In this document: in pieces, positions 33,778 through 41,376 of the stretch
How the letters are laid out: each line of letters begins with the position of its first letter
Numbering within the stretch: the stretch's first letter is position 1
Virus record (IMG/VR): IMGVR_UViG_3300020577_004796
Coordinates: 1 to 64,000 of that record
Direction: 5' to 3' (one strand)
Origin: a virus
Lineage: Duplodnaviria; Caudoviricetes
Length of the DNA: 64,000 bases
Program-made: the position numbers and the translations under genes
Notes under the pieces: model-generated
The model's input: only the letters and a program-made list of their open reading frames with translations
Told to the model about the DNA's origin: nothing
The model's database searches: none

Positions 33778-33809
33778 TTTGGAATTGTTAATAATAAGTT
33801 GTACCTTTG
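33778..33809 (+). promoter_or_regulatory. Bacteroidota primary-sigma promoter for the GIY-YIG gene
   Basis: TTTG-N20-TACCTTTG ending 5 nt before ATG 33814. Confidence 0.75.
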
Positions 33810-33813
33810 TGGT

Positions 33814-34356
33814 ATGATTTACATATATACAATTACAAGTCCTACGGGAAGGGTTTATGTGGGACAGACCATTAATCCTACAAAGAGAAAACACCTCTAT
33901 AAGTCATTACATTGTAAGACACAATATCTCATTTATAATTCCATATTGAAATATGGCTGGGATGCACATGTGTTTACTGTTATAGCAGAATTACCTATCG
34001 AATATGGAGATGATGCAGAAATAGCATATATTTCCTATTATAGGGCCTATCATACTGATGGTGGACTTAATCTTACTACAGGAGGATTACGCCCTAAAAT
34101 GACTGTAGAAACAAAACAGAAACTATCTGCTGCTATTATGGGAGCAAAGAATGCCAGAGCTAAGAAACTATATCAATATACATTAGATAAACAACTCATT
34201 AAAATATGGGATTGTATGAAATGTATTGAGAGAGAACTTGGTTATGGTACATCTTGGTTATCTATAGCAGCTAAAAATAATAAACAAGCTTACGGCTATC
34301 TATGGTCATATGAACCTCTGCAAGGGCTAGATGAATGGGTAATCTGTTCATGGTAA
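33814..34356 (+). CDS. GIY-YIG homing endonuclease (NUMOD3/NUMOD1)
   Basis: IYIYTITSPTGRVYVGQT, LNLTTGG, TVETKQKLS, LYQYTLD..LIKIW. Confidence 0.85.
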   Translation: MIYIYTITSPTGRVYVGQTINPTKRKHLYKSLHCKTQYLIYNSILKYGWDAHVFTVIAELPIEYGDDAEIAYISYYRAYHTDGGLNLTTGGLRPKMTVETKQKLSAAIMGAKNARAKKLYQYTLDKQLIKIWDCMKCIERELGYGTSWLSIAAKNNKQAYGYLWSYEPLQGLDEWVICSW

Positions 34357-35501: not shown

Positions 35502-36098
35502 ATGATACGTTACAAACTCACAGATCAGAACATGAAAACTTATAATGGTTTTCAATGGAAAATAGGTAAGAAAATGATTACTTCTGGTTCAGGAGAATTA
35601 TGTAGTTCAGGATGGCTTCATTGTTATTCCGATCCTAATTTAGCTATTCTTTTCAATCCTATTCATGCAAATATTCAAAATCCAAGACTCTTTAAAGTTG
35701 AATGTGCGGGTTTACATAAAACAGATAAAGGATTAAAGGAAGGATTTACAGAAATGACTATAATAGAAGAAATAACAATTCCAAGTATTTCTTCTATTCA
35801 AAAAATAGAATTTTCTATATATTGTTCTTTACAAGTATATAAAGATTCTAACTATGTTAATTGGGCTAATAATTGGCTAAATAATATAGATCGTTCAGAG
35901 TCAGCAGCACGGACAGCAGCATGGACAGCAGCACGGACAGCAGAGTCAGCAGCATGGACAGCAGCACAGGCAGCACAGGCAGCAGAGTCAGCAGCATGGA
36001 CAGCAGAGTCAGCAGCACAGGCAGCAGAGTCAGCAGCACGGACAGCAGCAATTGATTTTATCTCTATTATTAATAAAGTATTAAATCGTACAAAATGA
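35502..36098 (+). CDS. Phage protein with DUF7666-like N-terminus and Ala/Trp-rich tandem repeats
   Basis: YK......F.W..G...LC..GW.H...P domain followed by SAARTAAWTAA-type repeats. Confidence 0.6.
   Translation: MIRYKLTDQNMKTYNGFQWKIGKKMITSGSGELCSSGWLHCYSDPNLAILFNPIHANIQNPRLFKVECAGLHKTDKGLKEGFTEMTIIEEITIPSISSIQKIEFSIYCSLQVYKDSNYVNWANNWLNNIDRSESAARTAAWTAARTAESAAWTAAQAAQAAESAAWTAESAAQAAESAARTAAIDFISIINKVLNRTK
35896..36050 (+). repeat. Imperfect in-frame CAGCAG-based tandem repeat
   Basis: Units such as CAGAGTCAGCAGCA(T/C)GGACAGCAG repeated several times; GC-rich against AT-rich flanks. Confidence 0.9.
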
Positions 36099-36387
36099 AA
36101 AAGCTCATTAAACTAATGCATTCTCTTACTTGTAAAGTATGTGGATGGCATATAAGACATTGTAAATGTCATTAATTTAATTCTTCAGATAGAATACAAT
36201 GAAAATGTTGCGTTATATGATGCAAATTATTAAATACTTGCATTATTCTATCTAAAGAATTAAATGCATACCAAACCTCAGAGGAGTTATATCCCTCACT
36301 GATTAGACAATAACTTAACACGGTAACAATTCTGTAATGTTTAAACTGATTCAAAAGGATTAAAATGTTTCAGTACATGGTTTTACA

Positions 36388-36503
36388 GGACGAGGAGGAT
36401 GTTGGCTTGAAAGCAGCAATCATTTAAAGAGTGGGATGGCAAATATGTTTTTTCTATTTTTATAGAGATAAATACCCTTTGGCGTAACAGCACACTCCAA
36501 GTT
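36388..36503 (+). ncRNA. 23S rRNA GTPase-associated-centre (H42-H44)-like structured RNA, copy 1
   Basis: GGAG-GATGTTGGCTTGAAAGCAGCAATCATTTAAAGAG-[about 48-nt hairpin insert]-TGGCGTAACAGCACA-CTCC. Confidence 0.8.
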
Positions 36504-36537
36504 AAGTTTAATCAGTCTTTCTCCCAAAGAGTGAGGT

Positions 36538-36673
36538 GTTGTAATGAGATAGGCAGGTCCCCAAAGACGGATAATAATGTAAATTAAAGAAACCGTGTTT
36601 ACTACTAGCTAAGTGATTAGAAACGTAGACTAGCAATAGGTCAGCGGTAAAGAGCATGTATCTCTATTACAAC
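36538..36673 (+). ncRNA. Unclassified multibranch structured RNA candidate
   Basis: Closing stem GTTGTAATGAGATA / TATCTCTATTACAAC; internal CTAA-GTGA-TTAG and CTA-GCAA-TAG GNRA hairpins. Confidence 0.5.
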
Positions 36674-36748
36674 AAGGTATATTGGGTGCTGATAGGAAAG
36701 ACTATCCCTCTTCGGAGGTTATTCAATTCACTCATTAAAACAATACTA

Positions 36749-37087
36749 ATGAAAAAGACATACATATTCAGATATGATACAAAGGATGGTAAATTCTTAG
36801 GCTATCATTATGATAGTTTCTGTACTACAGGTAACAGTGTTATAGAAGCTAAAAGATATCCAATGACTACAGAAGTACTTCCAGAACAAATGAAGACCAT
36901 TCGGGAGAATCTGGAATCATTATGTAAGAGATATACTAATAACATGTTCCATGGGCATCCTGTAGCTGATGTCATACTCTCTGAAGAAGAACTGACAGAG
37001 TCCGTAGAACAACAGTACCCACATACCATGAAATGGGCCAGAATAGAACTGGTAGATGGAGAAATACAAACTGTATCAACTCCTTAA
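36749..37087 (+). CDS. Hypothetical protein
   Basis: Likely start ATG 36749 (MKKTYIFRY) after a CACTCA box. Confidence 0.6.
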   Translation: MKKTYIFRYDTKDGKFLGYHYDSFCTTGNSVIEAKRYPMTTEVLPEQMKTIRENLESLCKRYTNNMFHGHPVADVILSEEELTESVEQQYPHTMKWARIELVDGEIQTVSTP

Positions 37088-37114
37088 TTCACTCACTTTA
37101 AAAACACATCAGGT

Positions 37115-37438
37115 ATGAACGCTAAACAAGAATTCCTAGGACATATAGGAACCCGTATAGTAAAATGTGCTATAATACGAATAGGAGATATATATATGGA
37201 TGAAGATGTAATAACTAACCTATTACCTGTAGGAGCATCTAGTACACAGTCAGAAACATTTCTGCAGAGTATAGATAGAAATTACAATAATGGGTATGGT
37301 ACTCAAGAACTATTTGGTACTATATGGTATACTGATGGTACCTGGTCTAGCAGAGGTGAATATGATGGCAGTGAATGGTGGGAACATCATAAATGCCCGG
37401 ATATACCAAAAGAACTACAACAGAAGCAATATCTATAG
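37115..37438 (+). CDS. Conserved small phage protein
   Basis: 107 aa, Y..GYG.QEL.GTIW..DGTW..R.EYDGSEWW motif. Confidence 0.7.
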   Translation: MNAKQEFLGHIGTRIVKCAIIRIGDIYMDEDVITNLLPVGASSTQSETFLQSIDRNYNNGYGTQELFGTIWYTDGTWSSRGEYDGSEWWEHHKCPDIPKELQQKQYL

Positions 37439-37440
37439 GT

Positions 37441-37635
37441 GGTGTGGTAGAGAATGTTGGCTTGAAAGTAGCCATCATCTAAGGAGTAGGTGAGAACCCT
37501 AAGCACAGTGGCAATCTCTGGTAATGGGAGATATGAAGTGGGCATGGGATAAATTCAAAAGTTGGGTGGATTAAACGCCACTACCTGGTAGTCATTATAC
37601 CAGCCTTTTGGTGTAACAACACACTCTGTCACATC
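37441..37635 (+). ncRNA. 23S rRNA GTPase-associated-centre (H42-H44)-like structured RNA, copy 2
   Basis: 12-bp closing helix GGTGTGGTAGAG/CTCTGTCACATC around AATGTTGGCTTGAAAGTAGCCATCATCTAAGGAG-[about 120-nt insert]-TGGTGTAACAACACA. Confidence 0.8.
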
Positions 37636-37670
37636 ATCTATAGATACTTATAGTAAAACAACAATATCCC

Positions 37671-37803
37671 CCTCTGTAGGGGTAGTGGTAGAAAATGATA
37701 TATAGCAGTTAAGTCAAAGATCCGGAAAATGGCCCATGGAGGTACTAGACACACCTGGTCATCTGCAGTATGGATATATCAGCTACCATTACCTCTACAG
37801 AGG
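37671..37803 (+). ncRNA. Long hairpin / multibranch element
   Basis: 21-bp closing helix CCTCTGTAGGGGTAGTGGTAG / CTACCATTACCTCTACAGAGG (with G-U pairs), plus inner TGATATAT/ATATATCA. Confidence 0.6.
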
Positions 37804-38926
37804 ATTAAGTTAACAACAGTACAGATATTAATACCTTTGTATAACAATCACTCACAAATAAAACAACTAACAAATACCTGTAGAGTATGGTGTAGAACTT
37901 AGAAAGAACTAATAAGTGTGGGTAAAATGCTGTGGCTAATAACCATATACATCATCTCTACAGGTAATATAAAACATTAAAATGGGAAAGAATACTGCAA
38001 GGAATAATCCAGGTAAAGTTAATGGTGATATTGGTCAGGGAGTAAAACGTAAGGACAACCCAGAACTATGGCATAAACTACACGGACATGCTGTAAACTA
38101 TAAAGGTAAAAGACACAATAATGCATTAGGCTCACTATACGGGAAACCTGATAGAGAAGAATATTATAAATACGAATCTGAATAAACACTCTGAAGTAAG
38201 CCTTGTTGTAATAGGTATAAGTATTAGGGTCTCTGATGTAATATTCAGGCTTGTCTAACCTTTTAACAACTATTACAACAGGCTTATGGAAGAGTATTAA
38301 ACAATGACTATTTAAAAAATAACTTATGAGATATAGATTTGATACTTGTTATAATAAACAAAAAACCAGCACATGGCTGCATTTTTATATCTTACCTTCT
38401 ATAGGATTTGAAATGCAAAAACCTAAATTAGCAGCGAGATATTGGGAATTTCATTTTGGCTGGTTATTTTGGAATCTTATTATATCGTTTTAAACAATAT
38501 TAATATGGCTACTAAATTTATAACTCTAAATAGAGCAAAAGACCTTGAAGTAAGTATAGGTTGGCTTTCTAATTATCAAAATAAATCTGGAGAAAAACAT
38601 GTAATTGGTAATTCTTTAGAGGATATAGATGCAGAAGCTACTGAAAAACTTAAACAACTTTCAAAGTTAAATAAAGAACGTGAAAGTTTATTAACTTGGT
38701 TCAAACAATATTGATAACACATAAAAGCAAACAACATGAAAAAGTCAACAATAATACTTGGTATAATATCTCTGATACTGTTCATCTGTAGTGCCATCTA
38801 TGACAGTCCCATACTGTTCATGATAGGGTTCGCTACCTGTATAACAGCATGTCTGATACAGGGATGGGATACATGGTCAGCAGGAGATGATGAAGAATAA
38901 GTTCACTCACTAAAAATAAAAACATT

Positions 38927-40934: not shown

Positions 40935-41310
40935 GGGCCCGAAAGGCAATCGACTTGCAATATTAAGAGCAACAGACATGCAGGGAAGGTGTGTTGACCA
41001 CTAATACACGCACAACAACAAATGCTAAAGTTAGCAAAAGCGCTATGACCTTTGGTCGTACTCGCACGATTGATGTTACTTCTTTCGCCCGCCCACGTGG
41101 CCTGGCGTTTGCAGCCTAACACCACTTCTGGTGAGAAGTAAACACACCAAAAACTGTTTTGAAATCTCAGTAAAGGATACCTTGACGTTGGAAGTAGATG
41201 TAAAGTATGCATAACTTCATAGTTTGATAGAACAATAAACTGATCTAAAGCATGTGAAAAGACTGTATTATTAAATTGTAAACACGTTCGTTCGAATCGA
41301 ACCGGGTCCA
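40935..41310 (+). ncRNA. ssrA: tmRNA (one-piece)
   Basis: 5' GGGCCCGAAAGGCAATCGAC; 3' GTTCG-TTCGAAT-CGAAC-CGGGTCC-A; G3-U70 alanine determinant; tag ORF 41024-41119 ends LAFAA*. Confidence 0.93.
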
Positions 41311-41376
41311 CGAATCCACAATAAATTTGGCGAGTCCACTTTTATTAAGAAATTCAGCCAAGTAAGAATGGCGCCA

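Follow-up and report, generated by a model that had tools for sequence, protein, structure and literature searches.

We analyzed a window of 64,000 nt, positions 1–64,000 of the IMG/VR record IMGVR_UViG_3300020577_004796 (Caudoviricetes); the record itself is a 73-kb virus sequence with an estimated completeness of 61%. Late genes, including those for the portal and the major head protein, lie on the minus strand up to approximately 30 kb, and small plus-strand genes begin at approximately 32 kb. One of the latter, a gene of 107 amino acids that matches phrog_3972 (E = 4e-23; 37115–37438, plus strand), is directly upstream of the element considered here, which starts 3 nt past its stop codon: an RNA gene of 195 nt (37441–37635, plus strand) that rebuilds the GTPase-associated centre (GAC) of 23S ribosomal RNA (rRNA), where protein uL11 binds and the translation GTPases engage the ribosome. 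We call this element copy 2, since a second version of the same RNA, copy 1, occupies 36390–36502 on the same strand. A pattern for the core of helix H43 finds two matches in the window, where 0.01 would be expected by chance. An earlier note on this DNA, made from the sequence alone, had described the flanks of copy 2 as phage genes, and they are indeed phage open reading frames (ORFs). Copy 2 is not inside a 23S rRNA gene: the virus record contains no large-subunit (LSU) rRNA gene, and Rfam 15 returns no match at either copy, to an LSU model or any other, even with E values up to 10 (36000–38200).

Copy 2 is closed by a helix of 12 bp that stands in for H42 and is not rRNA in sequence. Its 5′ strand (37441–37452) pairs with its 3′ strand (37624–37635, 12 nt) without a break, by 10 Watson-Crick and 2 G-U pairs, and position 37624 (equivalent to C1104 of 23S rRNA) is the partner of 37452 (G1055). 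Inside this helix comes the 5′ half of the GAC core (37453–37487, 35 nt), which corresponds to 23S positions 1056–1090 by gapless match to true 23S rRNA, by covariance-model alignment and by covariation; it comprises H43 with its 1065–1073 loop, the 1082–1086 mini-hairpin (here C..G), and G1087, A1088, G1089 and U1090. An accessory domain of 119 nt with several hairpins (37488–37606) then intervenes between 1090 and 1091, closed in the predicted fold by a helix of its own (37488–37490/37604–37606), and a UUUG linker (37607–37610), kept as UUU(G/A) across the family described below, joins that helix to G1091. The 3′ half of the core (37611–37623, 13 nt; 23S 1091–1103), assigned by covariance-model alignment, 23S match and family pair counts, forms the top of H44 with the 1093–1098 loop; U1092 and A1099 are paired, and A1101 pairs with U1090. 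All of these parts are on the plus strand. The minimum-free-energy (MFE) fold (−61.3 kcal/mol, z = −2.7) contains the closing helix, which the earlier note had recognized. That note had also placed an insert of approximately 120 nt at 1089–1090; the insert is there, as the 119-nt domain plus UUUG, and its actual site is between U1090 and G1091. Two of the four insert helices it listed recur as hairpins in the predicted fold (approximately 37511–37533 and 37585–37603), whereas the other two are plausible and absent from the MFE structure.

The minimal fragment of 23S rRNA that binds uL11 and thiostrepton is E. coli 1051–1108, that is, H42–H44, and the states known as U/U-A and C-G at its two covarying tertiary sites are carried by archaeal and eukaryotic rRNAs. 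In the GAC, C1072 pairs with C1092 and hydrogen-bonds to G1099, and U1082-A1086 is a mini-hairpin closed by a single trans Watson-Crick pair that is C-G in Haloarcula marismortui (PMC2952862). Once insert and linker are removed, the core of copy 2 aligns without gaps to 23S 1056–1104, as the earlier note had proposed, with 37 of 49 positions identical to an E. coli-type reference (rRNA contig L039) and 39 of 49 to a Firmicute-type one (segment L050). H43 and H44 form, and each known tertiary contact is either present as in rRNA or replaced by a compensatory combination. Both exchanges previously proposed, C1092-G1099 to U-A and U1082-A1086 to C-G, are present, and to these we add a U at 1072, which completes the U/U-A form of the 1072/1092/1099 base triple. 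The RNA thus shares with the ribosomal GAC its secondary structure, the U1060-A1088 contact, the G1071 and 1072 triples, the 1082–1086 mini-hairpin and A1084/A1085; A1095 is also kept. It departs from the GAC in being phage-encoded and outside an rRNA gene, in the replacement of H42 by an unrelated perfect helix, in the domain and UUUG inserted at 1090/1091, in an A for U at 1101, and in positions 1067/1068, which are GA in both copies instead of the universal AG of rRNA.

Copy 2 has many relatives. An exact H43-core pattern run against IMG/VR gave 43 loci, one of which is a real 23S gene, and all the others show the same split design. A looser 5′ pattern and an independent pattern for the 3′ half each returned at least 120 loci; after removal of duplicates there are at least 154 distinct phage loci. 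The earlier note had pointed to a covariance-model search for an insert-bearing GAC as the means of checking its proposal. From 13 short-insert members we built such a model, R1 (174 positions, 23 pairs), which scores approximately 80 non-seed members at 56–125 bits and a true 23S locus at 51 bits. Copy 2 itself scores 114.4 bits (E ~3e-27 on R1's rough scale of E-values; model positions 1–174), a figure that is partly by construction because copy 2 is one of the 13 seeds. We conclude that copy 2 belongs to a large family of free-standing GAC copies carried by mobile tRNA arrays. Counts given below per 77 members refer to the strong, distinct members among the matches listed.

The two copies in the window are the only R1 matches in the virus record, and the presence of two is unusual, as five other carrier genomes have a single copy each. 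Copy 1 scores 98 bits with R1; it has an insert domain of 45 nt and a short, interrupted closing helix, is identical to Firmicute-type 23S rRNA at 44 of 49 positions, and carries bacterial-type covariants (C1072, C1092-G1099, U1082/A1086). The cores of the two copies differ at 7 of 53 positions (1056, 1072, 1076, 1082, 1086, 1092 and 1099), and five of the seven make up the two tertiary sets: 1072/1092/1099 reads CCG in copy 1 and UUA in copy 2, and 1082/1086 is U-A in the one and C-G in the other. Each core is closer to the element of another phage than to the other core. Both have G1067 A1068, a combination that is rare in the family (5/77). Among contigs from four runs, which matched the window only in short pieces, the deep pile at 36396–36433 is made up of true 23S rRNA from other organisms and was set aside. 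One contig (run X16) bridges 36305 and 36507, where 40 unrelated letters take the place of 36306–36506, copy 1 included; judging from this single contig of low depth, a relative of the phage seems to lack copy 1.

The covariation within the family bears on whether the fold matters. Among 85 distinct aligned sequences, 93.2% of the cells at modelled pairs are paired, compared with 68.5% in shuffles, and the covariation score is 0.559, against 0.136 for shuffled alignments and no more than 0.16 after the partners are shifted by 1–3 columns. Double changes occur at all nine modelled pairs of the closing helix and at all four modelled pairs of the insert helix. At the 1072/1092/1099 triple, 67 of the 77 members read CCG, nine UUA and one CUA, so that 1092-1099 is either C-G or U-A; 1082/1086 is U-A in 47, C-G in 23, A-U in three and something else in four; U1090-1101 is U-A in 74 and U-G in three. 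The pair 1058-1080 takes all four Watson-Crick forms (U-A, G-C, A-U, C-G). As the first two retrieval patterns had constrained some positions of the 5′ half, these counts were repeated on a less biased sample, 102 distinct elements retrieved by the 3′ half alone. There, 1082/1086 is complementary in 99 of 102 elements where 61.8 would be expected (a value reached in 0 of 2000 shuffles) and 1058-1080 in 100 of 102 where 45.2 would be expected; 1057-1081 changes from A-U to C-G nine times, and 1064-1074 from C-G to A-U six times. G1059, U1060, G1063, G1071, C1075, A1077, A1084/85 and A1088 are near-invariant in this sample; for G1071, U1060 and A1088 the invariance is consistent with their tertiary contacts and uninformative for covariation.

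These comparisons support the view, also put forward in the earlier note, that selection keeps the fold, and they speak for excluding a decaying rRNA fragment; uncompensated decay in homologues, named there as the observation that would count against a functional fold, is contradicted by the covariation of the family. It follows that we consider it highly improbable that copy 2 is a relic of host 23S rDNA, or a cis-acting leader of the next gene, with no RNA function of its own. Its high identity to 23S rRNA, and its position 3 nt after a stop codon and upstream of small ORFs, speak for such an explanation. The helix that flanks the core is nevertheless non-rRNA and covaries family-wide, the differences between the two copies are compensatory, and the members, at least 154 of them and distinct, are found in unrelated phages, mostly between tRNAs. 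Members from phages of gammaproteobacteria also differ from host 23S rRNA at 1088–1090, and often at 1058/1080 and 1061 as well, which indicates that they are not recent captures of host rDNA. As for a leader, the L10(L12)4 site in the rplJL leader and the L1 site in the L11 operon mRNA do offer a precedent for off-ribosome imitation of a stalk-region rRNA site, but those r-protein leaders are cis-acting, partial mimics, whereas the phage RNA is a near-complete copy of a domain, set among phage genes or tRNAs. No ORF downstream of copy 2 has a Pfam or PHROG match to a ribosomal protein, and the Rfam L10_leader model finds nothing in 36000–38200 at E values up to 10.

The site of the insert, between U1090 and G1091, is constant in the family, and deleting the insert together with the linker restores the bacterial consensus junction to the exact base. 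In the helix that closes the insert, pairs 1 to 4 covary, the first being G-C in 43 members, A-U in 23 and U-A in 10. Linkers read UUU in 76–77 of the 77 members, followed by G in 69 and A in eight. Insert lengths, by comparison, range from 23 to 310 nt; no content is common to all, and the shortest inserts are plain hairpins. A hairpin module, with a GNRA-type loop and a UAAGG bulge just 5′ of the closing strand, is shared by 23 of the 77 inserts (examples lie in the 3′ part of the inserts of loci L049:2620–2680, L054, L051, L012, L034 and L004); T4 rnaD holds a string loosely similar to this module, which may be coincidence. None of the 77 inserts, those of the two window copies included, contains the bulged-G/GNRA motif of a sarcin-ricin loop, and the RNA thus does not rebuild the whole factor-binding site.

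Two explanations give the insert a central role. The first is that the insert is cut after transcription, for instance by RNase III in the insert helix, or spliced out, and that the active form is a two-piece or re-joined GAC. RNase III is known to cleave intervening sequences of 23S rRNA, removal of insert and linker leaves the exact bacterial consensus junction, a U invariably precedes the insert while the linker ends in G or A, and the ends of the insert pair with each other. We nonetheless find this improbable: Rfam gives no match to a group I or group II intron or to a self-cleaving ribozyme in the insert, inserts of 23–100 nt are far too small for self-splicing introns, and the change of the rRNA U at 1101 to A, which forms a pair with U1090, has the look of adaptation to a three-way junction that is permanent. 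In the second explanation the GAC fold would be only a compact, nuclease-resistant handle, perhaps decorated with uL11, that presents or stabilizes a variable insert in which the real function resides and which differs between phages. No phage member lacks the insert, whose site is constant and whose junction is conserved; the inserts are long, structured and lineage-specific, with a sub-module common to 23 of 77; and three more long-stem structured elements follow copy 2 in the window. Still, inserts can be as small as a 23-nt hairpin, the cyanobacterial relatives described below have none, and the GAC core, including both tertiary sets, is conserved far more tightly than a scaffold requires. 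We regard the handle as unlikely.

The family is associated with tRNA genes. In the 154 listed loci, a tRNA on the same strand is found within 50 nt of the element in 56 cases, within 500 nt in 85 and within 2 kb in 95 (62%), a location that is therefore typical and not obligatory; of the 858 tRNAs counted there, 855 share the strand of the element, and some members take up precisely the space from one tRNA to the next. Among the proteins encoded beside the element there is no recurrent family across the same 154 loci; the largest cluster of neighbours is present at 9 of them. Cultured carriers include the Pseudomonas phages pf16 (where the element is between tRNA-Asn and tRNA-Pro), UNO-G1W1, Astolliot and Milchi; Aeromonas phage 4_4572; Serratia phage BF; Cronobacter phage GAP32; Erwinia phages of the pEa_SNUABM group and Kaldavass; and Xanthomonas phages XacN1, XbC2 and XaC1. 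In these genomes the site is unannotated or lies under a hypothetical-protein call; the hypothetical coding sequences laid over the element in UNO-G1W1 (L054:2072–2179, opposite strand), Kaldavass and Milchi are probably spurious. One further sequence, in Paenibacillus phage Pd_22F (L050:2367–2436, near the record end), is insert-free, follows the true Firmicute 23S design and has rRNA-like flanks; it is probably real rDNA.

Related copies are also found in bacterial genomes. A scan of one genome per prokaryote species gave at least 120 loci, and blastn against real 23S rRNA divided those listed into 25 true rRNA genes and 96 free-standing copies. The split phage design is seen in 29 of the free-standing copies, on contigs binned with various bacteria; the remaining 67 are insert-free. 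From the record titles seen, the insert-free copies are mostly from filamentous cyanobacteria (Nostoc, Calothrix, Anabaena, Microcoleus, Moorena and Leptolyngbya); examples are Calothrix NIES-22 (L245:5582–5650), Moorena 3L (L226:3177–3259) and Leptolyngbya PCC 7375 (L224:~1200–1290). They have the U/U-A triple, retain U1101, and possess an extended closing helix of their own that shows covariation. In 41 of the 67 cases a tRNA gene is found on the same strand no more than 1 kb away, which makes it probable that these copies are part of the long tRNA arrays of cyanobacteria. The Anabaena long tRNA array is induced by impaired translation and aids survival, according to a report that does not mention a GAC element (PMC8421152). 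The insert-free copies score just above threshold with Rfam LSU models, at 55–59 bits over only 70–84 nt, so that annotators may label them as 23S fragments. On bacterial contigs assigned to Acidithiobacillus sp. (L282) and Nitrospira (L239, L264) we observed a GAC 5′ half with no 3′ half within 1.5 kb; either the insert is very long or the copies are truncated, and they could be prophage-borne.

Set against known systems, the phage family resembles the T4 species 1 and 2 RNAs (rnaC and rnaD), which are stable non-tRNA RNAs in a phage tRNA array, presumably freed by tRNA-processing enzymes; rnaC and rnaD, however, are not GAC-like, and even with its filters switched off R1 gives no credible hit to the T4 tRNA cluster (69.5–74.5 kb). 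Phage phiTE pseudo-ToxI RNA (PMC3475682) and the spare tRNAs of phages are likewise phage copies that substitute for a cellular or defence RNA, although what is copied in the present case is a functional rRNA domain. The long tRNA arrays of cyanobacteria are mobile arrays of tRNA genes with insert-free GAC copies inside or beside them, in 67 of the genomes listed; they differ from the phage loci in being chromosomal or plasmid-borne and not viral, with a GAC copy that lacks the insert and keeps U1101.

Directly downstream of copy 2, at 37671–37803 (fold z = −6.2), 37875–37966 (z = −4.9) and 38196–38287 (z = −3.8), all on the plus strand, are three structured elements with long, near-perfect closing stems and large interiors, which bracket a small ORF (37982–38185); they may be other stable RNAs or processing signals. 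A tmRNA-like gene with an unusual tag was called by ARAGORN 3.3 kb downstream of copy 2 (40935–41313, plus strand); it scores 41.7 bits with the Rfam tmRNA model (E = 4e-15), below the gathering score of 47. Homing-endonuclease genes are common in phage tRNA regions, and a GIY-YIG/NUMOD3 homing-endonuclease-like gene is found in the early block (33799–34356, plus strand). Apart from this gene, informative Pfam or PHROG annotation among the neighbouring proteins is limited to DUF7666 and phrog_3972. The phrog_3972 gene shows 76–81% DNA identity over approximately 100 nt to genes of T5-like, Klebsiella and Pectobacterium phages, and in the T5-like Escherichia phage DaisyDussoix its homologue (L341:1625–1972) is inside a tRNA array and is followed by an unannotated gap of 450 nt; that gap contains no GAC mimic. 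A scan for sigma-70 promoters around the two copies found 14 sites, as against 14.4 in shuffles. Terminator-like sites number four, compared with 1.3 in shuffles, and the sole plus-strand site is inside the insert of copy 2.

What might such an RNA do? The C-terminal domain of uL11 recognizes the folded shape of the GAC domain, and the pattern of conservation in the family points in the same direction. Bases of the fold are near-invariant, whereas only 85% of members retain A1067 and only 75% G1068, with G, C or U where 1067 is not A; the bases that vary, 1067, 1068, 1096 and 1097, form the factor/thiostrepton face and are outside the fold. This contrast favors the fold, and the uL11 surface, over a contact with a translation factor. 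Judging from sequence, we hold with moderate confidence that the RNA is an off-ribosome, uL11-binding decoy or sponge, that is, a stable, trans-acting noncoding RNA. It would be transcribed together with the early plus-strand genes and excised as a stable RNA, in most relatives by tRNA-processing enzymes, since the element abuts tRNAs there. The free RNA would then display the uL11-binding surface of the stalk base in the cytoplasm. Its likeliest direct partner would be the host's uL11, engaged through the C-terminal RNA-binding domain; a gene with a uL11 domain is absent from the five carrier genomes searched for one, and this favors a host rather than a phage partner. Acting as a sponge, the RNA might withdraw uL11 from ribosomes and so blunt RelA activation and other uL11-dependent steps; acting as a decoy, the uL11-RNA complex might be a false target for a factor that recognizes the stalk base. 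The benefit to the phage of capturing uL11 is a matter of speculation.

It is also conceivable, if unlikely, that the RNA, alone or together with uL11, protects ribosomes during infection as a decoy that absorbs some other molecule that binds the stalk base: an immune effector or toxin of the host that acts at H43/H44, a GTPase of translation, a factor of the RelA type, or a thiopeptide-type antibiotic. The element travels with tRNAs and, in the window, with a tmRNA-like gene, and phage tRNAs are thought to replace or out-compete the targets of host nucleases. Cyanobacterial arrays with insert-free copies are of a kind in which a single array has been studied, and that array responds to translation inhibitors; A1095 is kept in 74 of 77 members. 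On the other side, we know of no effector that targets H43/H44, and none of the 77 inserts supplies the sarcin-ricin loop. Position 1067 is also telling: tight binding of thiostrepton depends on A1067, and EF-G contacts this base, yet it is replaced in 15% of members and is G in both copies. That it is free to vary suggests a partner with no need of the A1067 contact made by thiostrepton and EF-G, and the G1067 of both window copies argues against a thiostrepton- or factor-type contact at that base.

Several observations weigh against a uL11 decoy or sponge, or against the strength with which the data can be read in its favor. A plain sponge for uL11 leaves unexplained both the insert and the UUU(G/A) linker, which are present in every phage member. 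Because most of the conserved bases are essential to the fold, their conservation cannot single out uL11. The two copies in the window are outside a tRNA array: the nearest tRNAs are at 30.8–31.0 kb, on the opposite strand, and at 50.9 kb, which is 13 kb away and the nearest on the same strand. Regarding the statistics, a covariance-model alignment is fitted to, and biased towards, the model's own structure; shuffle nulls ignore relatedness among the sequences; and the 5′ bias of the first two retrieval patterns is corrected only by the 3′-anchored sample.

In a larger context, and much more tentatively, free-standing copies of the stalk base may be a general accessory of mobile tRNA arrays in phages and cyanobacteria, a trans-acting switch for translation stress that captures uL11, or a reader of the uL11-rRNA surface, and thereby uncouples ribosomes from RelA and the stringent response or disarms a putative immune effector directed at the GAC. 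On this possible but doubtful scheme the insert would be a lineage-specific second binding module, and the two copies of the present phage would be either non-recombining paralogues or versions tuned to different partners.

The isolated GAC-uL11 complex is among the best-studied RNA folds, and to our knowledge no natural RNA outside the ribosome has been known to reproduce a whole functional domain of rRNA. We found no description of a GAC mimic from a phage or a tRNA array in open-access full text or on bioRxiv, and the family is absent from Rfam 15. The window adds to it the presence of both tertiary states in one genome, an instance outside a tRNA array, the exact site of the insert and its linker, a 3′-anchored profile of conservation, and insert-free relatives in the tRNA arrays of cyanobacteria. 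For structural work, the family is a natural series of GAC variants, with both states of the base triple in a single genome and a tolerated three-way junction in H44; for annotation, it accounts for elements that are now unannotated or hidden under spurious hypothetical-protein calls. These RNAs would constitute a new class of viral noncoding RNA with culturable carriers among phages of Pseudomonas, Serratia, Cronobacter, Aeromonas, Erwinia and Xanthomonas, and they point to an unrecognized manipulation of translation or of the stringent response.

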